Assembly: GCA_963545485.1 (NCBI GenBank)
Contig: CAUUJG010000007.1
Location: 6,240 to 70,239 of the forward strand
Reading direction: 5' to 3'
DNA: 64,000 bases
DNA from: an uncultured Clostridia bacterium
GTDB lineage: Bacteria; Bacillota; Clostridia; Christensenellales; CAG-917
Below, piece by piece: positions 4,417 through 14,577 of this stretch; the stretch's first letter is position 1, and every line of letters begins with the position of its first letter. The notes under the pieces were generated by a model. The model saw only the letters and a list, made by a program, of their open reading frames with translations. It made no database searches and was not told where the DNA came from. A program made the translations under genes and the position numbers.

Positions 4417-7011
4417 TTGGAAGAAAAAATCACCCCGATGTGGAAACAATATCACACTATTAAGTCAGAATATAAAGACTATATTCTTCTATATAGACTT
4501 GGTGATTTTTATGAAATGTTTTATGAAGATGCAAAAATTGGATCTGATGTTTTAGGAATTGCATTAACCGGTAGAAGTGCAGGGAATAATACAAAAGCAC
4601 CAATGTGCGGAGTACCATTTCATAGTGTAAATTTATATATTAAAAAATTAATTGAAGCTGGATATTCAATTGCAATGTGTGAACAGATTTCAGATTCATC
4701 TGAAAAAGGTATGGTTGAACGAAAAGTAGTTAGAGTTATAACCCCTGGAACAGTCATAGAAGACACTATTTTATCCGAACCAGAATCTAATTATTTGGCA
4801 TATATATATTTTGAAAGAAATAGTTTTGCAATTTCTTGGATAGATATTTCCACGGGTGAATATAATGTATATTCTCATATTGATAAAGAACCATTAACTA
4901 AAATTCAAGATTTGTTATCTATGATAAAGCCAAAAGAGATTTTATCCAATGATGAATTTTTTAAATTTCACTATGATATACCTTATTTTAATATGTTTAA
5001 TATTAAGCCTAAAGTTTTTTCTTCAGGCAGAATGACTGTTAATAGTGCAAAAGAATTTTTAATTAATTATTTTAATTTAAAAACATTAAATTCTTTTGAG
5101 ATAAAAAATGATTTAGAGATACTAGCTGCAGCTCAAATACTTTCTTATATTATTAATACTCAACAACAAATTTTAAAAAATATAATTAAACTAACTGTTA
5201 TTAATGAATCTATGTATATGATTTTAGATATTAATACTCGAAGGAATCTAGAGCTTATACAAAATGTAAGAGACGGTAAAAAAGAAGGAACACTAATAGA
5301 AGTACTTGATTATACAGTTACTCCAATGGGCTATAGAGCTTTAAAAAGTATAATTGAAAAACCATTGCACATATCCAAGGATATAAATGCAAGACTTGAT
5401 TCAATAACAGAATTAATTCAAAAAAAAGAGGAAACAAACAAATTAAATAATTTATTTGCAAATATTAAAGATTTAGATAGAATACTGTCGAGAATTCTTA
5501 TAGCATCAATTAATCCAAAAGAAATTTTACATGTTTTAGAAACACTTCAGTTAATACCTAAAATTAAACAACTACTTAAAGAACATAATTCGGAATTAAT
5601 TAAAAATTTGAATAACGATATTTCTTATTTAGATGAATTTACAGATATTTTAAACAGATCTCTCGATAAAGAAAAAATTAATAATAATGAACACTTTGTT
5701 ATAAATAGTTGTTTTTCAAAAGAATATGATGAATATAGTAATATTGCAAAAAATGCTCAACAATGGGTTGCTGCAATTGAGCAAAAAGAAAAAGAGCATA
5801 CAGGAATAAAAAACTTAAAGATATCAAAAAATAATATTTTTGGTTTTTATATAGAAGTAACGAAATCATTTACTAATTCTGTTCCGGATAATTATATTAG
5901 AAAACAAACATTGGTAGGGTCTGAAAGATATACAATTCCGGAATTACAAGAAATAGAAGAAAAAATTAATTCAGCAGAAATTAAATTAAATAATATTCAG
6001 GAAGAGATTATTAACAATATTAAAATTGAATTTATTAATCATTACTCTGAATTGAAAAAAATTTCCAATTCAATAGGCATGTTGGATTGTTTAATATCGT
6101 TAGCTAAATCCGCAGTTATAAACAACTATCAGAGGCCTATAATTAGTGATGAAATCAAAGAATTAAAAATCATATCTGGAAGACATCCAGTCGTAGAGCA
6201 GATTTTAAAGAAAAATGTTTATGTTCCAAACGATACTACATTTGATAATACAAAAAGAACGCACATAATATCTGGTCCAAATATGGCGGGTAAAAGCACG
6301 TATATGCGTCAGGTAGCATTAATTACATTAATGGCACATATAGGTTCATTTGTATCTGCAGAATCGGCACAGATTCCTATAATCGATAGAATTTTTACAC
6401 GAATAGGTGCTTCAGATGATTTATTTACAGGGCAATCAACATTTATGGTAGAAATGAATGAAATTGCAATGATTCTAAATTATGCTACTGAAAACTCATT
6501 ACTGATTATAGATGAAATTGGTCGTGGAACATCTACACTTGATGGATTAAGTATTGCTTGGTCTATCATTACATACATTAATGATAAAGTAAAAGCAAAA
6601 ACCTTGTTTTCAACACATTTCCATGAATTAATAGAATTAAATGATGTTGATGGAATTATTAATTATCATATTCTTATAAGTGAAAAAAATAATAAAATTA
6701 ACTTTTTGTATAAAATAGTTCCAGGTGGAGCTGTTAGAAGTTACGGAATAGAAGTGGCTGAAATAGCTGGAGTAAATAAAGAAGTTATAACAACTGCAAA
6801 ACAGATTTTAAAGAACTTAGAGGTAAATAATATTGGATTAGACATACCAAATAAGTCGGATTGGTACACACAAGGTAACTTGTTTGATTACAAAGAAAAA
6901 AGTAAAATTGAAAAAGAAATTTTAGATTTAAATTTAGATAATATAACACCTTTACAAGCATTAACTTATTTAATTGATATTAAGAAAAACATAGAGGAAT
7001 CTTATGAGTAA
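4417..7011 (+). CDS. mutS: DNA mismatch repair protein MutS
   Basis: TPMWKQY N-terminus; Walker A GPNMAGKST; DEIGRGTS; STHFHEL; 864 aa. TTG start immediately after the miaB stop, with GGAG 12 nt upstream. Confidence 0.95.
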   Translation: MEEKITPMWKQYHTIKSEYKDYILLYRLGDFYEMFYEDAKIGSDVLGIALTGRSAGNNTKAPMCGVPFHSVNLYIKKLIEAGYSIAMCEQISDSSEKGMVERKVVRVITPGTVIEDTILSEPESNYLAYIYFERNSFAISWIDISTGEYNVYSHIDKEPLTKIQDLLSMIKPKEILSNDEFFKFHYDIPYFNMFNIKPKVFSSGRMTVNSAKEFLINYFNLKTLNSFEIKNDLEILAAAQILSYIINTQQQILKNIIKLTVINESMYMILDINTRRNLELIQNVRDGKKEGTLIEVLDYTVTPMGYRALKSIIEKPLHISKDINARLDSITELIQKKEETNKLNNLFANIKDLDRILSRILIASINPKEILHVLETLQLIPKIKQLLKEHNSELIKNLNNDISYLDEFTDILNRSLDKEKINNNEHFVINSCFSKEYDEYSNIAKNAQQWVAAIEQKEKEHTGIKNLKISKNNIFGFYIEVTKSFTNSVPDNYIRKQTLVGSERYTIPELQEIEEKINSAEIKLNNIQEEIINNIKIEFINHYSELKKISNSIGMLDCLISLAKSAVINNYQRPIISDEIKELKIISGRHPVVEQILKKNVYVPNDTTFDNTKRTHIISGPNMAGKSTYMRQVALITLMAHIGSFVSAESAQIPIIDRIFTRIGASDDLFTGQSTFMVEMNEIAMILNYATENSLLIIDEIGRGTSTLDGLSIAWSIITYINDKVKAKTLFSTHFHELIELNDVDGIINYHILISEKNNKINFLYKIVPGGAVRSYGIEVAEIAGVNKEVITTAKQILKNLEVNNIGLDIPNKSDWYTQGNLFDYKEKSKIEKEILDLNLDNITPLQALTYLIDIKKNIEESYE

Positions 7012-8782
7012 AATAATTCATTTAAGTGAAGATGTATACAATATGATTGCGGCTGGTGAAGTTGTAGAAAATCCATCTTCTGTAGTAAAAGAACTTGTTG
7101 AAAATTCTATAGATGCTGGTGCAACACAAATATTTGTATATACAGAGAAAGGCGGTAAAGAATTAATTAGAGTATCAGACAATGGTATTGGCATTGAATA
7201 CAATGATCTTGAATTGGCATTTATGCCTCATTCAACAAGTAAAATATCGTCAGCTCTAGATTTGTCTCAAATAAGTACTTTAGGATTCAGAGGTGAAGCC
7301 TTACCTTCAATTGCTTCGGTTGCAAAAATAGAAATATTCTCTAGATATAAAAATTCTGACATCAGTGGCCATTTGGTTATTGATGCAGGGAAAATACTTT
7401 TAAAAGAACAATGCAATTGTGCAATTGGAACTAAAATTTTGGTTAGCAATTTATTTTATAATGTTCCGGCAAGGCAAAAGTTTTTAAAATCAGATAACTT
7501 AGAAGAAAAATATATTAAGGAAAAAATTAAAAATCTTATATTTTCATCTCCAAATATATTTTTTAAATATGAAACTGAAAGTGGTATAAGTATGCTGTCA
7601 GAAGGACGGGGACTTGATTATGCAATTTCAGATATTTATTCTGATGAAATTGCCAATAATATGCTAACTGTAAATTATCAAAATCAATATGGCGTAACAG
7701 TTTTTGGGAAAATATCAAATATAAAAATTAGTAAAAGTAATAGGTCATATCAAACTTTAATCATAAATGGAAGAACGGTAACTGATAAAAAATTGCAAGT
7801 TGCAATTGAAAAAGCATATACGCCATATCTCATGACAAAGACATTCCCTTTATATGTACTACATATTAGTATGCCATTTGATGAACTTGATATTAATGTT
7901 CATCCAACGAAATTCGAAGTTAGATTTTTAGACATAGGAAGAATATTTTCCGCTCTTTATAATGCCGTTATGCATGCACTACATGGATATGAAATTGATA
8001 GGAATAATGATAAAAAAACATTAATTAATGAAAATACTCAAAATAGAGGATTCATAACTCCTAAAATTAATGCATCAATCAAATCAAATTCTGAAACACC
8101 AGTTTACAATGAGAAAATAGATAATAAAGGAGATGTTTTCATTTACGATATTAAAGAAAGTATTTCAGATACAAAGACTGAAATATTAAATGTTGTTACA
8201 GAAGATGTCTTTTATGGGAAAATAATTGGTCAAGCTTTTGATACATATTTAATTTTGGAATTAGATAATATTTTATATTTAATTGACCAACATGCAGCTC
8301 AGGAAAGAATAAGATATGATAATATTGTCAAAAATTTTAGTAATGATAAAATCCAAAAGCTTTTAGTTCCATATATTTATAGAATGTCTATTGTGGAAGA
8401 AGAGTACATAAAAAATATATTTACATCATTAATTGATATTGGATTTAGAATTGAAGTAACAGACGGTCAATTAACAATTTTTGCAATACCAGAAATTTTA
8501 ACATCTTATGGTATAGAAAAAATAATTAATTACTTATTTAAAGAAATTAATGACTTATCAGATAAAAATATTGATGATTTCGTTAAAGACTTATTTGCAT
8601 CCAAAGCCTGCAAAGGTGCAATTAAAGGGGGCGATACTCTCACAAGACAACAAATTGCGTATCTTTTGAAAATGATGAAAACAGATGACCAATTATTTCC
8701 TACTCAATGTCCACATGGTAGACCTTGTGTTTTTGAAATCACAAAAGATGAAGTTGAAAAAATATTTAAGAGAATTGTTTAA
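7004..8782 (+). CDS. mutL: DNA mismatch repair protein MutL
   Basis: GHKL ATPase motifs (IAAGEVVENPSSVVKELVENSIDAG, DNGIGI); C-terminal QHAAQERI and CPHGRP motifs; 592 aa; overlaps the mutS end by 8 nt. Confidence 0.95.
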   Translation: MSKIIHLSEDVYNMIAAGEVVENPSSVVKELVENSIDAGATQIFVYTEKGGKELIRVSDNGIGIEYNDLELAFMPHSTSKISSALDLSQISTLGFRGEALPSIASVAKIEIFSRYKNSDISGHLVIDAGKILLKEQCNCAIGTKILVSNLFYNVPARQKFLKSDNLEEKYIKEKIKNLIFSSPNIFFKYETESGISMLSEGRGLDYAISDIYSDEIANNMLTVNYQNQYGVTVFGKISNIKISKSNRSYQTLIINGRTVTDKKLQVAIEKAYTPYLMTKTFPLYVLHISMPFDELDINVHPTKFEVRFLDIGRIFSALYNAVMHALHGYEIDRNNDKKTLINENTQNRGFITPKINASIKSNSETPVYNEKIDNKGDVFIYDIKESISDTKTEILNVVTEDVFYGKIIGQAFDTYLILELDNILYLIDQHAAQERIRYDNIVKNFSNDKIQKLLVPYIYRMSIVEEEYIKNIFTSLIDIGFRIEVTDGQLTIFAIPEILTSYGIEKIINYLFKEINDLSDKNIDDFVKDLFASKACKGAIKGGDTLTRQQIAYLLKMMKTDDQLFPTQCPHGRPCVFEITKDEVEKIFKRIV

Positions 8783-9693
8783 TGGAAATTTATATTGTTG
8801 GTCCTACAGCTTCTGGTAAAAGTGACCTAGCAATACAAATTGCTAAGATTTTAAATACAGAAATTATATCTGCCGACAGCATGCAAATATATAAGGAATT
8901 AAATATAGGCACTGCGAAAATAAAAAAAAATGAAATGATGGGCATCCAACATCATATGATAGATTTAATTTCATATAAAGATGATTTTTCTGTGTCTGAA
9001 TTTTCCAATAGAAGTAAAGAAATTATTAAAGAAATTAAATTAAAAAATAAAATTCCTATTATTGTCGGTGGCACTGGGCTATATGTACATTCTCTTTTGT
9101 ATAATATGAATTTTGGAAAAACAGTTAAAAATATTGAACTCAGAGCTAAAATAGAAAAACTGATAAATAAATATTCACTAGAAAAAGTATATAGAATATT
9201 GCAAATTATAGATTACACAGCATCATTAAAAATTAATAAAAATGATAAGAAACGAATTATTCGTGCACTAGAAATTAACCTGGAAACAAAAAAAAATATT
9301 TCATCTTTAACAGACAATTACTGCTTAGATAGAGAAATAATAATGATATTTATAAATCCAAGCGACAGGGCATTATTATATGAAAAAATTAATTTGCGAG
9401 TAGATAAAATGTTTCAAGATGGGTTATTAGAAGAAATTAAACAAATTGATAATTTTGAATACCAAAGTATGAAAGCAATTGGATATAGAGAATTTAATAA
9501 AGTTAATATAACAAATATCACTGAAGAAGAAATAACTGCGGTTAAAACGCAAATAAAACAAGATACTCGAAGATATGCTAAAAGACAGATAACTTGGTTT
9601 AAACAATATCAATTTGCAAAACAATTTGATTTAAATCAAAACCACAAAATAATTAATTATATTACGGAGAAACTAAATGATTTCAATAAATAA
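8782..9693 (+). CDS. miaA: tRNA dimethylallyltransferase MiaA
   Basis: P-loop GPTASGKS; ISADSMQIYKELNIGTAK; RRYAKRQITWF; 303 aa; TAATG overlap with mutL. Confidence 0.92.
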   Translation: MEIYIVGPTASGKSDLAIQIAKILNTEIISADSMQIYKELNIGTAKIKKNEMMGIQHHMIDLISYKDDFSVSEFSNRSKEIIKEIKLKNKIPIIVGGTGLYVHSLLYNMNFGKTVKNIELRAKIEKLINKYSLEKVYRILQIIDYTASLKINKNDKKRIIRALEINLETKKNISSLTDNYCLDREIIMIFINPSDRALLYEKINLRVDKMFQDGLLEEIKQIDNFEYQSMKAIGYREFNKVNITNITEEEITAVKTQIKQDTRRYAKRQITWFKQYQFAKQFDLNQNHKIINYITEKLNDFNK

Positions 9694-10888
9694 AATAGAG
9701 AATGATTTAAAAAAAGTGTTTGCTAGAATAGATGACATTGCAATATTTAATCAAAAAAAAGTACTTGAGGCTTTTAGAATTAATCAAATTTCTGATTGGC
9801 ATTTTACTCATACCACAGGATATGGGTATGATGATCTGGGACGTCAAATGTTATCTAAATTAGTTGCGACAATTTTTGATGCAGAAAGTGCTATAGCCTC
9901 TCCATTGATTACCTCTGGTACACATGCTATTTCATTAATGTTTTACGCGACCTTATTTCCTGACGATATATTGTTATCAATAACAGGTAAACCATACGAC
10001 ACTTTAAATGATGTAATAAGTAAAAAAAATACAGGTTCACTAGCAGATTATAAAATTAAATATCAAGAAATAGATCTTACAAAAGATGATTTTGACTACA
10101 AACAAATTGAAATGTATTTAAAAGAAAAATTTATTAAATGCGTATTTATAACAAGGAGTAGGGGATATTCTCTTAGAAATTCACTATCGATTACTAAAAT
10201 TAAAGAAGCTATTAAATTTATTAAAAAAATTTCACCTAATACACTAATTTTGGTGGATAATTGTTATGGTGAATTTGTTGATGAACTTGAGCCAACACAA
10301 GTAGGTGCAGATCTAGTTGCAGGATCTTTTATTAAAAATTTAGGTGGGGGGATTGTTCCTACAGGAGGATATATAGTTGGAAAAAAAGAATTAGTGGATT
10401 TAGCTGCTAATAGATTAACTGTACCTTCATTAGGATTTGAAGTTGGTTCCTACAGAAGTGGTTACAATGAATATTTTGAAGGATTATTTATATCACCAGT
10501 TACAGTTAAAAACGCATTAAAATCAGCAGCTTTATTTTCATCTTGTTTTTCACATTTAGGATATGAAACAATTCCAGAAAAAAGTACCATACCATTTGAT
10601 ATTATTGTAAGCATAATACTTAAAGATAAACATAAACTATTAGAGTTTTGTAGATTAATTCAAAAATATTCTCCTGTTAATTCAAATGTAATTCCAGAGC
10701 CATATCAGATGCCTGGATATGATGATGAAATTATTATGGCGGCTGGAACATTTATACAAGGTGCGTCCATTGAATTAACAGCTGATGCTCCAATAAGAGA
10801 ACCTTTTGTAGTTTACTTGCAGGGCGGATTAACTTACGAACATTCAAAAATAGTATTAAATGAACTGCTTAATTTAAATGTTTTTTAA
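9677..10888 (+). CDS. PLP-dependent Cys/Met-metabolism family protein (YnbB / 'aluminium resistance' family)
   Basis: The HFTHTTGYGYDDLGRQ...SGTHAIS signature is typical of the YnbB family. 403 aa; overlaps the miaA end by 17 nt. Confidence 0.75.
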   Translation: MISINKIENDLKKVFARIDDIAIFNQKKVLEAFRINQISDWHFTHTTGYGYDDLGRQMLSKLVATIFDAESAIASPLITSGTHAISLMFYATLFPDDILLSITGKPYDTLNDVISKKNTGSLADYKIKYQEIDLTKDDFDYKQIEMYLKEKFIKCVFITRSRGYSLRNSLSITKIKEAIKFIKKISPNTLILVDNCYGEFVDELEPTQVGADLVAGSFIKNLGGGIVPTGGYIVGKKELVDLAANRLTVPSLGFEVGSYRSGYNEYFEGLFISPVTVKNALKSAALFSSCFSHLGYETIPEKSTIPFDIIVSIILKDKHKLLEFCRLIQKYSPVNSNVIPEPYQMPGYDDEIIMAAGTFIQGASIELTADAPIREPFVVYLQGGLTYEHSKIVLNELLNLNVF

Positions 10889-10974
10889 CTTTACATATTG
10901 CATTCCAAAATAAAGTTAAATTTTAAAATTGATAAATTATATATTAATTTATTATTTTAAAATTTGTGATAAAT

Positions 10975-11110
10975 AAAAAAACACTTAAAGAGTGTTCTTT
11001 TATGAGAGCCTCGAGCTCCAGCCTTAATATCTGGCTTTTAGTCTTCAACTGTTCTCTCCCTACAACGCAGGTTGTAGCACGCTTTTCAGCAACGTAGCGC
11101 CAACGACAAT
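10975..11110 (-). ncRNA. Unclassified structured small RNA, paralogue A (own promoter and intrinsic terminator)
   Basis: - strand promoter: TTGACA (11142-11137), 17 nt, TATTAT (11119-11114). The transcript begins near AAAUUGUCG. The body is GC-enriched relative to its flanks and contains hairpins CUACAAC-CUGC-GUUGUAG and CCAG-N9-CUGG. It ends in the hairpin AACACU/AGUGUU plus U7 (10975-10996). No gene lies downstream on this strand. The 3' 48 nt are 46/48 identical to paralogue B. Confidence 0.6.
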
Positions 11111-11392
11111 TTAATAATATAGGAGAAAAAGAAGGATGTCAATGTAAACGCAAAGCCAATAAGAAATCTTGTTTTTAAGACATCTGAAGAAGTGTATGAC
11201 GAATAGAGTGAAGTATATCAACCTACGGTTTTCTTTGCACATCATCAAATTTGTCGCATTGTTTATTCAATTAATGGCGTTGCCGGTATAATTATTTATA
11301 TGATTAAAAAATGCAAATATTGTAATAATAGATGTAATTAAAATTATTGATAAAAAGTACTCAAACAAATAATATAAGTTGGGGGCTAAATC

Positions 11393-12397
11393 ATGAATAA
11401 AATTAAGAATACAATGATAGAAATTAGTGAAGATATAATTGAAAATAAGATTTATATTATAAGAAATCAAAAAATTATGCTGGATAGTGATTTGGCAGAA
11501 ATTTATGGATATGAAACAAAAAATCTTAATAGACAAGTTAAAAATAATATTGAAAAATTTGAAGGCGAAGATTTTATGTTTCGGTTAACAACTCAGGAAG
11601 TTAAAGAACTTTCAAGGTGCAAAAATTTCACCTTGAACAATATAGGTCAAGGGAATAACATTAAATACAATCCATATGCTTTTACAGAACAAGGAATATA
11701 CATGTTAATGACCGTATTAAAAGGTAATTTTGCCATTCAACAGAGTAGAGCTCTAATTAAAGCATTTAAACAAATGAAGGATTACATTATAGAAAATAGA
11801 GATTTTATTACTTCAAATGAATTATTTAAATTAGCTATGCAAACGAGCAAAAATACTAAAGATATATTAGAAATAAAATCAAACATGGCGACGAAAGAAG
11901 AATTCAAAAAAGTGATGAACAACTTTATAGATCCAAATACATATAAGCATTTTTTATTATTTAATGGCGATAAAATAGAAGCTGATATTGCATATGTTAA
12001 AATATATAAATCAGCCAAAAAAAGCATTTATATTATAGATAATTATATAGGGTTAAAAACATTAGAATTATTAAGGGCAGCAAAAAATGATATAGAAATA
12101 AAAATTTTTAGCGACAATATAAAAAATAAAGAAATGCTTACCAAAAATATTTTAGAAGATTTTAAAAAAAGTTATAAAAATATTAAAATAAACATCCAAA
12201 TTGCAAATAAAAAATATCATGATCGATATATTGCAATTGACTATGGAACAGAAGATGAAGCATTTTATCTTTGCGGAGCATCATCAAAGGATGCTGGAAA
12301 TAAGATATCTACAATTACTAAAATTGAAGCAGTATCTAATAACTTATACCATAATATGTTTTTTGAAATATTAAAAAATAAAGAATTAAATTTTTAA
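11393..12397 (+). CDS. ORF6N (KilA-N-related DNA-binding) domain protein fused to a variant HKD/PLD-like C-terminal domain
   Basis: The N-terminus matches the ORF6N pattern (IYIIRNQKIMLDSDLAEIYGYETKNLNRQVKNNIEKFEGEDFMFRLT...YNPYAFTEQGIYMLMTVL). The C-terminus reads KKSIYIIDNY...KYHDRYIAIDYGTEDEAFYLCGASSKDAGNK, which resembles a single HxK(x)4D...GSxN PLD motif with R in place of K. GGGGG RBS 8 nt upstream. Confidence 0.7.
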   Translation: MNKIKNTMIEISEDIIENKIYIIRNQKIMLDSDLAEIYGYETKNLNRQVKNNIEKFEGEDFMFRLTTQEVKELSRCKNFTLNNIGQGNNIKYNPYAFTEQGIYMLMTVLKGNFAIQQSRALIKAFKQMKDYIIENRDFITSNELFKLAMQTSKNTKDILEIKSNMATKEEFKKVMNNFIDPNTYKHFLLFNGDKIEADIAYVKIYKSAKKSIYIIDNYIGLKTLELLRAAKNDIEIKIFSDNIKNKEMLTKNILEDFKKSYKNIKINIQIANKKYHDRYIAIDYGTEDEAFYLCGASSKDAGNKISTITKIEAVSNNLYHNMFFEILKNKELNF

Positions 12398-12446
12398 TTT
12401 ATTCACTTTTTACAAATAATATTTTTATTATCTATTTAGAATAAAT

Positions 12447-12582
12447 AAAAAAACACTCAAAGAGTGTTCTTTTATGAGAGCCTTGAGCGTTGGTCTTATA
12501 AACCCAACTTTTAGTCGATCACTTTTCTCTCTGAACGGTTCAATATCTACATCCCGTCTTAGCATTCTCAGCCACGCGACAA
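12447..12582 (-). ncRNA. Unclassified structured small RNA, paralogue B (own promoter and intrinsic terminator)
   Basis: - strand promoter: TTGACA (12615-12610), 17 nt, TATATT (12592-12587). The transcript begins near UAUCUUGUCGCG. Hairpins ACGG-N17-CCGU and GUUGG-N10-CCAAC. Conserved elements AGAGAGAA, GACUAAAAG and GGCUCUCAUAAAAG. Terminator AACACUC/GAGUGUU plus U7 (12447-12469), which also serves as a + strand terminator for the ORF6N gene. Confidence 0.6.
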
Positions 12583-12807
12583 GATAAATATATAAAGAAG
12601 AGTAAAAAATGTCAATAGGAACAAAATTTAAGTTAGCGTCTAGTTTTCCGTTAGATTTGAGTAAATAATAATCAAACAAAATTAAATTTAATATAAAAGA
12701 TGTAATGTTCGGAAGTAATAAATAGAGTAGATTATCGACTAATAGTATGATTCCAAATGACATTATTGTAAGTATTTTCAAAAATTTTAGTGATTAAGCT
12801 AATCCAG

Positions 12808-12843
12808 CAACTATGCGTAAAATAATAATTTTACGCATAGTTG
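12808..12843. repeat. Perfect palindrome: 15-bp arms around a 6-bp AT spacer (CAACTATGCGTAAAA-TAATAA-TTTTACGCATAGTTG)
   Basis: Read directly from the sequence. No T-run follows on either strand, so it is not a canonical intrinsic terminator. It sits between sRNA B and the corA promoter. Confidence 0.8.
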
Positions 12844-12876
12844 TGTGAAGAAACATGAAAACTATTATTTATTTGT

Positions 12877-13018
12877 TTGATAAGTTATTTTAAGTTTGTT
12901 AGAATTAAAACACTTTTGAGGTAAATAATGGAATCCGATGGTCGAAGTAAAAAATTAAATATTGTGACGCTGAGGTAAATATTTACTGTTTCCCTCTGGC
13001 AATCTTTAGGAGGGTTAA
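12877..13018 (+). promoter_or_regulatory. corA promoter and ~107-nt leader with an SD-sequestering hairpin
   Basis: TTGATA (12877-12882), 17 nt, TAGAAT (12900-12905). CCCUC (12992-12996) can pair with the GAGGG of the RBS (13010-14). Two upstream copies of UGAGGUAAAUA (12917-27, 12971-81) could compete for the CCCUC. Confidence 0.45.
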
Positions 13019-13978
13019 ATGATTCAAGTTTTTAAAAAAGAAAATAATTCAACAGTTTCAATCAATTTTGAAGATTTATTGGATAATTATGACTATTCTG
13101 ATCATTGGTTACATTTATCAAATCCAACTGACAAAGAAATTGAATTTATTTCCAAAACATTTAATGTCGAAGAAAATTTAATTAAATCATCATTGGACGA
13201 TGAAGAAAGACCTAGAATTGATTATGAAAACAACTCAACACTGATTCTTACTGATATTCCAATTACTGAAGAAGATGAAGAGCAAAATCTGTATACATAT
13301 TCAACTATTCCATTTGGATTTATAAATGCTGGTAAAACCATTATAACAATTTGTCTTTATGAGACATCTATTGTTAATGATTTAATTTATGGAAGATTTA
13401 TTAGAGGAATCAATATACATAAAAAATCACGTTTCTTACTACAATTACAGTACACTATTTCAAAAAAATATATACAGTATCTTAGTCAAGTAGATAAAGC
13501 CTCTCAACGAATCAAAAATGAACTCGAAAAATCAACAAAAAACAAAGAGTTAATTGAAATGATGAATTTAGAACAATCACTAGTCTACTTTTCCACTTCT
13601 TTAAGATCTAATCTCATTGTTGTAGAAAAATTAGTAAAAATAATTGAAATGTTTGATGAGGACAAAGAATTACTTGACGATGTAATCATTGAAAATAAGC
13701 AAGCAATTGAAATGGCAAATATTTACAGAGATATTTTATCAGGGACTATGGATGCATATGCTTCAATAATTTCAAATAATTTAAATGTAGTTATGAAAGT
13801 TTTAACCTCAATTACGCTTATTTTAGCTATTCCAGCTCTATTTGCTGCATTTTGGGGAATGAACACAAAGGTTCCTTTTCAAGGTAAAGAATGGGGATTT
13901 TGGGTAGTCGTTGTTCTATCACTTATTTGTAGTATCGTATTAGCTATTGTACTTTGGAAAAAGAAACTACTGAAATAA
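13019..13978 (+). CDS. corA: Magnesium/cobalt transporter CorA
   Basis: 319 aa with a cytoplasmic N-domain and two C-terminal TM helices. The signature GMN motif (FWGMNTKVPF) lies in the loop. GGAGGG RBS. Confidence 0.88.
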   Translation: MIQVFKKENNSTVSINFEDLLDNYDYSDHWLHLSNPTDKEIEFISKTFNVEENLIKSSLDDEERPRIDYENNSTLILTDIPITEEDEEQNLYTYSTIPFGFINAGKTIITICLYETSIVNDLIYGRFIRGINIHKKSRFLLQLQYTISKKYIQYLSQVDKASQRIKNELEKSTKNKELIEMMNLEQSLVYFSTSLRSNLIVVEKLVKIIEMFDEDKELLDDVIIENKQAIEMANIYRDILSGTMDAYASIISNNLNVVMKVLTSITLILAIPALFAAFWGMNTKVPFQGKEWGFWVVVVLSLICSIVLAIVLWKKKLLK

Positions 13979-13980
13979 TA

Positions 13981-14577
13981 TTATAATGTCAATAATTCAA
14001 GATGCAATTTAAGCTCTTTTTCAACTTTTAACGCTCTTGAACATTCAGAAAGAAAACTTATATTTTTATTTTCCTTCAGCATATATTTTTGTAAAATTTC
14101 TCGAATAAATTTAAGTCCTCTATTTTTTACAGGCTTCAAAATATCACAAATTGTTCGTTCTAAATTATATGCCCGTAAAATATTTCCTTGTGGTGAAATA
14201 ATAGATTCTATGCCTAAACTATAATATGGCTCTACCGAATTATTACATATAATTCCATCATTTTTTGGATTACTATAATTATATGTTTTAGGAAATGTCA
14301 TTTGTATATTATTTGGTTTTATATCAATTATTTTATGTAAATATAAAGCGGTTTCTAAACAATAAATCCCCTTTTTATATTTAGTCTGAAGATTTAAAAA
14401 ATCATCTTCTACGCCGTTAGGTACTTTATATACTCCTCTACTTACACGAATTAAAGAGCCCAATTTTAAAAGATAATTTATATTACTTCGCAAATAACCA
14501 GCATCAACTATCATATTGGTAGTAATAAGTCCGTTGTTTGAATTTGCTATACTTAATATTTCTGTATATTTTTTCAT
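13981..14577 (-). CDS. abiEi: AbiEi-family antitoxin / transcriptional regulator (type IV TA) with no adjacent AbiEii
   Basis: End-to-end AbiEi pattern: NGLITTNMIVDAGYLRSNINYLLKLGSLIRVSRGVYKV (wHTH), ...YCLETALYLHKI...MTFPK..., ...AYNLERTICDILKP.... 198 aa. Confidence 0.8.
   Translation of the reverse strand: MKKYTEILSIANSNNGLITTNMIVDAGYLRSNINYLLKLGSLIRVSRGVYKVPNGVEDDFLNLQTKYKKGIYCLETALYLHKIIDIKPNNIQMTFPKTYNYSNPKNDGIICNNSVEPYYSLGIESIISPQGNILRAYNLERTICDILKPVKNRGLKFIREILQKYMLKENKNISFLSECSRALKVEKELKLHLELLTL

Follow-up and report, generated by a model that had tools for sequence, protein, structure and literature searches.

Structured small RNA genes beside an ORF6N gene in an uncultured Clostridia bacterium: probable orphans of a dif-inserting mobile element

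Introduction

Two short, similar units bracket an ORF6N gene in a 64,000-nucleotide stretch of DNA from an uncultured Clostridia bacterium (NCBI GenBank assembly GCA_963545485.1, contig CAUUJG010000007.1, positions 6,240 to 70,239 of the forward strand; the whole stretch is called the window below), which raises the question of what these units are and whether they belong with the gene between them. A sequence-only reading of the window had described them as paralogous structured RNA genes of about 135 nt and had proposed that the layout is either an RNA-plus-effector cassette or a new riboregulator family. We call the unit beside ynbB RNA A and the other, on the CorA side, RNA B; loci compared with the window carry L numbers, and coordinates are collected in Table 1. 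With good confidence we take both units to be orphan copies of a new family of structured small RNAs (sRNAs) that is part of a mobile element inserting at a dif site, and the ORF6N gene to be unrelated to them.

Two RNA genes with their own promoters and terminators

Both units were found on the minus strand, as had been described, with lengths close to those proposed. Their near-consensus promoters were the top two promoter matches in a scan of 10500-13200 (2.7 kb), and the 3' end of each unit is a hairpin followed by T7. The terminator scan listed the terminator of RNA B alone. A window-private G-to-A change in the RNA A stem (10986-10990) leaves it with two G-C pairs; hairpin and U7 are present in both units, in RNA A with this weakened stem. 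Having their own promoters and terminators and no same-strand gene 3' of either copy (the gene facing RNA A convergently is ynbB, and the one facing RNA B is the ORF6N gene), they are best described as stand-alone RNAs and not leaders, in agreement with the earlier description. The bodies are also GC-enriched as stated there, with a G+C of 0.37-0.48 against 0.09-0.25 in the flanks.

The two RNAs could be aligned end to end, and their last ~60 nt are almost identical. The shared elements UUGUCG, AGAGAGAA, GACUAAAAG and GCUCRAGGCUCUCAUAAAAG all aligned between the two in one order, and the 24-mer GGCTCTCATAAAAGAACACTCTTT, common to both RNAs, occurs exactly twice in the window (0.00 expected). 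No third copy was detected in the window with a covariance model, even without filters. The single-sequence folding energies of the two RNAs were not significant (z = -1.5 and -1.8), so the case for structure must rest on the comparison of homologues.

Homologues share a covarying, probably pseudoknotted fold

Homologues were sought by scanning a collection of 185,579 species, each represented by a single genome, with the pattern CTAAAAG..GGCTCTCATAAAAG. This returned 7 matches including one true homologue in a metagenome-assembled genome of an uncultured Clostridia bacterium (L007), where the RNA likewise lies beside ynbB. A metagenome scan returned 43 matches, four of them true homologues (L089, L113, L116 and L124), and the majority of homologues were drawn from the DNA around close relatives of the neighbouring gene ynbB and of two other proteins. 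A covariance model built on 11 sequences scored between 100 and 167 bits over all copies.

Across 20 distinct homologues, standard pairs were present in 96% of cells and compensatory changes were seen in 18 of 38 pairs. Column shuffles gave 6.9+-1.2 such pairs (0 of 500 shuffles reached 18), and controls in which the partner was slid by 1-3 columns gave 2-5. The fold comprises a closing helix P1, the body hairpins P2 and P3, a hairpin P4 with the invariant loop GUUUAUAAGA, and the terminator. P1 joins the 5' end to GAC-U-AA, a pairing put forward earlier as possible, and has compensatory changes in 4 of its 6 pairs; its variants are UUGUCG:CGACUAA, UUAUCG:CGAUUAA and, in L079, UUACGA:UCGUUAA. 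The hairpin after GACUAAAAG, in which the exchange of CCAG/CUGG for UUGG/CCAA between the two window copies had been read as covariation, was paired in all cells of the 20 homologues with compensatory changes in three of four pairs, so that this reading held as well. A 3-bp helix AGY:RCU covaries and adjoins GAGAG:CUCUC, and both helices cross P1. GAGAG:CUCUC, the other pairing put forward earlier, is invariant across the present homologue set and hence gives no covariation signal either way; it and AGY:RCU probably form a pseudoknot with P1. RNA B matches the consensus in P1, P4, the pseudoknot strands and the terminator and has its own hairpins in place of P2 and P3, which fits the layout of a diverged 5' body on a constant 3' part that had been recognised from the two copies. 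The L158 RNA has a different terminator stem that is nonetheless compensated, and its P3 is CUCAA:UUGAG.

G-U pairs exceeded A-C combinations by 28 to 7 (15:6 without the terminator), which favours the minus strand as the folding strand, and the promoter arrangement was kept upstream of all 16 distinct RNA copies examined. This comparison of sequences confirms RNA A and RNA B as genes of a real, structured small RNA, which their promoters and terminators predict to be expressed.

A protein-coding gene at these positions, either a plus-strand peptide (MRASSSS...) or the 117-amino-acid (aa) open reading frame (ORF) at 12428-12781 on the minus strand, would have to account for the same data. An ATG-led plus-strand frame of ~30 codons is open in many copies, and gene callers annotated an ORF of 111-117 aa over RNA B in L131 (1687-2022) and L133 (1691-2044). 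However, one-nucleotide indels shift the plus-strand frame in three lineages, L077 has an early stop, and the helix changes that are compensatory in the RNA alter amino acids; on these grounds the peptide was rejected, and the substitution pattern that had been suggested for telling the two apart favours an RNA. The minus-strand ORF crosses both promoter and terminator, is reduced in the sister species to pieces of 67 and 76 aa and matched nothing in Pfam or NCBIfam, and the gene model that public assemblies place on RNA B is very probably an artefact. We give a coding gene next to no credence.

The family has no match in RNA and mobile-element collections

At the gathering score Rfam 15 recognised only two tRNAs in the window. 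At E<=10 the region 10900-12700 gave two matches to 6A RNA only, which scored 18-19 bits where gathering requires 41, and the island copies described below gave no match to Rfam 15; every copy was thus below gathering, in keeping with the earlier statement that no family could be recognised. Four scans of IMG/VR, including one with a profile of the small protein introduced below, returned chance matches only, and searches of phage and plasmid collections by blastn and tblastn with the RNA and the replication initiator (Rep) returned no match. Relative to Rfam 15, to the phage and plasmid collections and to IMG/VR, the RNA family is new, and it was limited to a narrow clade of uncultured low-GC Clostridia. 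It would add a covariation-supported family with an unusual, probably pseudoknotted fold and three invariant motifs, from an uncultured, very AT-rich lineage for which the libraries searched gave no matching RNA family. Of the proposed new riboregulator family, the new RNA family stands and regulation is a putative role. The general kind of arrangement, a mobile-element sRNA paired with a repressor and kept in cryptic copies, is already well known.

The RNA gene lies back-to-back with a small basic protein gene

Related loci with an inserted island carry the RNA in a constant setting. In every island a gene for a basic protein of 106-163 aa stands back-to-back with the RNA gene and opens a long operon. 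The 5' end of the RNA is ~27 nt from the ATG of this partner gene, the ATG falls within the reverse complement of the RNA -35 hexamer (TTGACAT / ATGTCAA), and the partner Shine-Dalgarno sequence GGAGA sits in the spacer of the RNA promoter. Loci fetched through the small protein (L140-L147 and L156-L158, after L077, L079 and L081 earlier) all have the RNA at ~27 nt. This includes L156 and L158, which were reached through remote family members, the L158 protein matching the family profile with an E of only 4.8e-12. The protein family comprised 18 clusters in 5.8e9 proteins, and a profile search of 1.84e9 gave 44 representatives. RNA body type and protein or operon type change together, and between L077 and L079 the homology breaks inside the RNA 3' module, suggesting that RNA and operon behave as one exchangeable module.

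A functional RNA-protein pair, in which the RNA serves the small basic protein as antitoxin or translational operator or forms a ribonucleoprotein particle with it, would explain the strict linkage, the fixed spacing and overlap of expression signals, and the joint change of RNA body and protein type. The protein is hydrophilic and basic with an R/N-rich tail, which would also suit such a role. It is however not a small hydrophobic toxin and has no Pfam domain and no toxin family match, the RNA lacks tandem repeats like those of type III antitoxins, and orphan RNAs outlast the decay of the protein gene. We consider such a pair unlikely.

Islands that carry the RNA insert at a dif-like palindrome

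Between RNA B and CorA lies a palindrome with 11-bp arms and a 6-bp centre, which is unique and intact in the window (0.03 expected) and came to light when island-bearing strains were compared with island-free ones. The island follows the ynbB-side RNA in L077, L079, L081-L085, L140, L142 and L146. At the left junction of 10 island loci the sequence turns to island DNA at the palindrome centre (..CGTAAAATAATAATT followed by GTG..); island-free loci hold the full palindrome, and island loci keep its left arm and centre. Integration into the RNA gene itself was rejected because the insertion is ~200 bp away at the palindrome. The generic dif pattern ATAA-N6-TTATGTNAA performed no better than chance, and no extra dif half-sites were present near RNA A. 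Between 12 and 16 kb of the window the GC skew switches from +0.13 to about -0.2 and gene orientation converges, suggesting that the window probably spans the replication terminus.

The islands begin with two small genes that point rightward, followed by a cI-like HTH_3 repressor pointing leftward, one or two further small genes in rightward orientation, the RNA (leftward) and a rightward operon with the small basic protein, proteins of 89-723 aa and a rolling-circle initiator (REP_ORF2-G2P). An N-terminal membrane anchor is present in most of the 89-723 aa proteins, which match no family; among the island proteins Pfam, PHROGs and PADLOC recognised only the HTH and Rep, and the seven large proteins scanned matched no inovirus or other phage structural family. 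The RNA lies near the start of the operon and Rep at its end (in L143 the RNA is at 291-434 and Rep starts at 6950, with seven genes between). No integrase was found in the ~8-9 kb of island retrieved, which is the left part, or in the window neighbourhood. The gene converging on the RNA is not constant: it is a 66-aa small membrane-protein ORF at L077 8806-9006, an ORF of 132-136 aa in L140, L142 and L158, and ynbB or the ORF6N gene in the window. A GA-rich repeat, GAGAGAGATGGAGAGAG, lies on the plus strand of L077 at 8996-9020 (also in L079 and L156), between the small membrane-protein stop and the shared terminator; it echoes the AGAGAGA motif of the RNA and is absent from L081-type islands.

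A palindrome with an apparently integrase-less rolling-circle element inserted in its centre, at the terminus, is the signature of IMEXs (mobile elements that integrate by making use of Xer), and by this likeness the palindrome would be the chromosomal dif and insertion would depend on Xer. IMEXs such as CTXphi, VGJphi and TLCphi exploit Xer (PMC4246890, PMC5357621), and those turned up by our literature search were mostly elements of Vibrio cholerae. The islands resemble them in the rolling-circle Rep, the repressor, insertion in the dif centre at the terminus, the lack of an integrase in the part seen, and old copies beside dif. They differ in that the sRNA is encoded by the element, whereas CisR acting on CTXphi, the sole sRNA linked to an IMEX in the literature search (PMC13250501), is encoded by the host. 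If the islands are IMEXs, their right junction is expected to be the island arm plus TTTTACGCATAG, without an integrase. The RNA thus points to an undescribed type of element that seemingly uses the chromosomal dif and of which nearly all proteins are unknown, perhaps an IMEX or ssDNA phage of a type new to Clostridia.

The presence of Rep also suggests that the fold could work as the single-stranded DNA of a rolling-circle element, as a single-strand origin, a packaging signal or an attP-like fold. The structured region is in a main non-coding stretch of the element, and single-strand origins likewise show conserved structure with variable sequence and strand specificity. Yet a promoter at fixed distance and the U7 terminator are kept in every copy, orphans included. 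The strand favoured by the pair counts is opposite in sense to Rep and the entire operon, whereas the displaced or packaged strand of rolling-circle elements is usually Rep-sense. No TAGCGT (CS-6) loop was seen by eye in the aligned copies, so that with the antisense strand and the conserved duplex promoter the likeness to ssoA fails, and the region has no dif-like half-site. A role as single-stranded DNA is in our view very unlikely.

The window copies are apparent orphans and the ORF6N gene is apparent cargo

Upstream of RNA A, a stop-interrupted remnant of the partner gene (..KPIRNLVFKTSEEVYDE*) was 43% identical to the L077 small protein over 51 aa (E 5.8e-8, tblastn). The ynbB-side RNA copy of the sister species adjoins a frameshifted partner-gene remnant, and the body seen in the ynbB-adjacent orphan of L076 recurs in the RNA of L156, where the partner gene beside it is intact (163 aa). 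These remnants indicate that the chromosomal RNAs are orphans of former elements, and the window copies appear to have been left beside dif by earlier insertions. Constraint on the orphans may be relaxed: within the species RNA A (loci compared include L130 4580-4717) carries polymorphisms, namely the window-private change in the terminator stem, a P2 G-to-A that breaks a pair, and GAGAG to UAGAG in L135 and L136, and these pair-breaking changes, with a truncated copy in L075, argue in that direction. The intact promoters of the orphans argue the opposite, a retained role.

The ORF6N gene between the copies encodes an ORF6N and phospholipase D-like (PLD-like) protein, and the match to the PADLOC candidate (profile PDLC04869, 2.6e-107) was full-length, covering residues 1-327 of 334; on this annotation it is a candidate for defence activity. 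An exact look-up of the window protein gave no match, and near-identical proteins were used instead. Relatives at 70-74% identity include proteins that their sources name as Streptococcus, Fannyhessea, Sphaerochaeta and Eggerthia, indicating that the gene moves horizontally and spread recently.

The idea of an sRNA/ORF6N/sRNA cassette, in which the RNAs guide or regulate the ORF6N/PLD effector between them, did not survive the comparison of loci. The RNAs adjoin the ORF6N gene in all seven ORF6N-bearing strains of the species. Five of them have the pair complete, and the two shortest contigs end in such a way that one RNA is cut or absent. However, L007, L076, L078, L080 and all island loci have the RNA and no ORF6N gene. 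In L007 the RNA is beside ynbB and the contig stops just past the RNA promoter, and in L076, L078 and L080 the RNA and ynbB are followed directly by CorA. In the other direction, no RNA was found beside 73%-identical ORF6N/PLD homologues in other organisms (L137-L139), even with filters off, and the 70-74% identity to proteins named as from other genera, with PADLOC modelling the gene as a separate candidate system, also speaks against a cassette. With RNA and gene occurring separately the cassette was rejected as already contradicted, and we hold it to be highly improbable. Among the neighbours of the homologues the ORF6N gene is not constant, and the small basic protein gene is. The RNA should not be annotated as part of the PDC-S05 defence candidate.

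The bracketing itself can be accounted for by recombination. L075, of the same species (ynbB 98% identical), is without the ORF6N gene and has only an RNA remnant in its ynbB-CorA spacer, which suggests that the RNA is dispensable. Compared with L075, the window has an additional segment that holds the body and promoter of RNA A, the partner-gene remnant, the ORF6N gene and the 3' module of RNA B, and whose ends are in or beside the repeated RNA 3' module. In the L075 remnant (2472-2552) the -35 of RNA B is joined to TTGTCC, followed by TTTAAAAG and the 3' half, and the P4 and terminator of RNA B are fused to the downstream flank of RNA A. This junction is the product expected of a crossover between two identical 3' modules. 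The end of the homology between L079 and L077 inside the 3' module is a second breakpoint there. The ORF6N gene thus appears to be cargo between RNA copies and no conserved partner of the RNA, and its bracketing a by-product of recombination between RNA paralogues, not a functional layout. The identical 3' modules are the substrate of the recombination that created the bracketed segment and removed it in other strains.

Several public contigs stop inside or beside an RNA gene (L007 1-80; L124 1-118; L082 9021-9124; L145 4-147), which fits assembly breaks at the repeated 3' module.

Table 1. Positions of the features discussed, in window coordinates unless a locus is named
Feature	Position	Strand	Remarks
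RNA A, probable orphan copy of the sRNA family	10972-11109	-	138 nt; covariance model 133.3 bits, E 1.8e-23
RNA A promoter	11142-11114	-	TTGACA-17-TATTAT; 11/12 sigma-70 consensus match
RNA A P1	11109-11104 with 11044-11038	-	
RNA A P2	11100-11097 with 11082-11079	-	
RNA A P3	11076-11072 with 11065-11061	-	
RNA A GAGAG with CUCUC	11058-11054 with 11008-11004	-	
RNA A P4	11034-11031 with 11021-11018	-	
RNA A terminator	11000-10976	-	
RNA B, second probable orphan copy	12444-12582	-	139 nt; most diverged body; covariance model 123.8 bits, E 1.2e-21
RNA B promoter	12615-12587	-	TTGACA-17-TATATT; 11/12 sigma-70 consensus match
Partner-gene remnant beside RNA A	11150-11293	+	Stop-interrupted
ORF6N + PLD-like gene	11393-12397	+	PADLOC candidate PDC-S05; Pfam ORF6N 1.8e-31, weak PLDc_2
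Segment absent from L075	11017-12592		1,576 bp; blastn, window vs L075
dif-like palindrome between RNA B and CorA	12808-12843, core 12812-12839		AACTATGCGTAAAAT-AATA-ATTTTACGCATAGTTG; alignment form AACTATKCGTAAAAT-AATA-ATTTTACGMATAGTTG
Islands	L077 7615-13212; L140 5003-14372; L142 37-8754		Own RNA copy; also in L143 and L146

Possible action of the RNA

The arrangement in the islands suggests how the RNA may act. In each of the island regions scanned its promoter outscored all other promoter-like sites, and it would be strong and constitutive while occupying the start of the operon's first gene. The operon would then be reached by read-through across the terminator that the RNA shares with the genes converging on it. 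This terminator is symmetric, with an A-run, a stem and a U-run, and upstream rightward genes end there, so that it could act, leakily, in both directions. The RNA promoter would fire head-on against the read-through, and the RNA, antisense and fully complementary to the read-through leader, would serve as a countertranscript or immunity-type repressor whose variable body sets specificity for its own type of element. In plasmids with countertranscripts and in phage switches with convergent promoters an operon is kept off in this way. This particular repressor mechanism is tentative and in our judgement somewhat more apt to be wrong than right; for identity, context and mechanism combined we see about even chances. 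The RNA offers a concrete case in which to ask about RNA control of the main operon in small rolling-circle elements.

Several points weigh against this reading. No convincing plus-strand promoter was found between the RNA 5' end and the small-protein ATG in the island regions scanned, and the overlap of the RNA and operon transcripts is assumed. The invariant AGAGAGAA, GGUUUAUAAGACC and GGCUCUCAUAAAA and the multi-helix fold are more than an antisense RNA needs and suggest a trans target or a protein partner, and the near-consensus promoters of the orphans could mean a host function. The AlphaFold model of the small protein, at pLDDT 55, was too poor to use. As for the element, its right end, an attP and a recombinase gene were not seen in the retrieved DNA, and the label 'phage' depends on the Rep domain and the repressor, the IMG/VR, phage and plasmid searches having given no match.

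The invariance of AGAGAGAA, the P4 loop GUUUAUAAGA and GGCUCUCAUAAAA suggests a protein partner or tertiary contact. An alternative is a domesticated, trans-acting host riboregulator, acting on host mRNAs or titrating an RNA-binding protein through CUCUCAU, AGAGAGA and three UAAAAG-like boxes, for which the mobile element was only the origin. The orphans keep terminators and promoters with 11/12 matches, the ynbB-adjacent copy is identical in many sister-species strains, some motifs are invariant amid covarying helices, and the invariant AGAGAGA resembles the (AG)3A motif of the B. subtilis Hfq aptamer. In Firmicutes hfq often follows miaA; the window has mutS-mutL-miaA-ynbB at 8782-10888, with miaA overlapping ynbB and hfq not in the position after miaA. 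A search of the 64-kb window for trans targets of the invariant motifs returned the opposite strand of the RNA genes themselves, weak matches of the AGAG motif and one P4-loop match with one mismatch (11171, on the RNA's own strand), which we judged irrelevant, and so gave no complementary target beyond the RNA genes. The loss of the RNA from L075, the pair-breaking polymorphisms of RNA A within the species, the variation of copy number and position between strains and the restriction of the family to one small clade likewise speak against a host riboregulator, which we regard as rather unlikely.

In a more far-reaching reading the RNA is the specificity (immunity) determinant of a so far unknown family of dif-integrating rolling-circle elements of gut Clostridia and the orphans beside dif are an RNA record that blocks superinfection. 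The body would match the element type, and the 3' module would be both a protein-binding handle and a recombination joint. In this improbable reading a small chromosomal set of orphans would keep related elements from superinfecting. The RNAs also offer a case for asking if a host gains protection from element RNAs left as orphans next to dif.

Comparison with known regulatory RNAs

The countertranscript RNAs (ctRNAs) of theta and rolling-circle plasmids and the switches of conjugative plasmids, such as pT181 RNAI/II, pMV158 RNAII, pIP501 RNAIII and pCF10 Anti-Q, are the apparent closest parallel in being short, structured, constitutive RNAs that accompany a repressor, are directed against an essential operon and end in an intrinsic terminator. 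The RNA described here differs in matching no Rfam ctRNA model and in not lying next to rep, which closes the operon ~5-6 kb downstream (in L143 well beyond the RNA, as given above), so that it is not antisense to the rep leader. Its fold is multi-helix and probably pseudoknotted with invariant motifs, and its overlap with a target is putative: the small-protein gene has its Shine-Dalgarno sequence and ATG within the RNA promoter, and no plus-strand promoter could be placed.

Prophages, cryptic ones included, offer a second comparison, with DicF from Qin (PMC5069750), svsR from NC-SV, a limiter of phage infection (PMC12803456), and the RalA antitoxin of rac (PMC4041452). Such sRNA genes stay active in decayed or integrated elements and may act in trans, including against incoming phages. 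They have no sequence or structure relation to the present RNA, which belongs to uncultured Clostridia and to an apparent dif-inserting rolling-circle element, not a tailed prophage.

Type I toxin-antitoxin sRNAs from prophage regions of Bacillus (RatA, SR4, SR5) are similar in their length of 100-200 nt, the two-way terminator, the location on a mobile element and, in some islands, convergence with a small membrane-protein gene. Here, by contrast, such an ORF was the convergent neighbour only in L077-type islands, the overlap would be confined to the terminator, the window orphans have no toxin gene and converge on ynbB and ORF6N, and the divergent partner is a hydrophilic basic protein. A type III system, with tandem direct repeats before an endoribonuclease toxin on one strand, is not matched either, as each RNA is a single unit with a promoter and terminator of its own, the two lie 1.3 kb apart, and there is no same-strand toxin. 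Integron attC sites, which are single imperfect hairpins with R/L boxes beside an IntI integrase, differ from the multi-helix, probably pseudoknotted fold seen here, and neither the window neighbourhood nor the islands yielded an integrase.

A further gene with a defence-related match lies beyond the palindrome. An AbiEi-like gene at 13981-14577 of the window (PADLOC 7.3e-53) has no AbiEii partner beside it. In the sister-species locus L076 the AbiEi-like gene is at 8765-9361, and a third RNA copy is divergent from it at 9568-9707; the window is without an RNA at this place.

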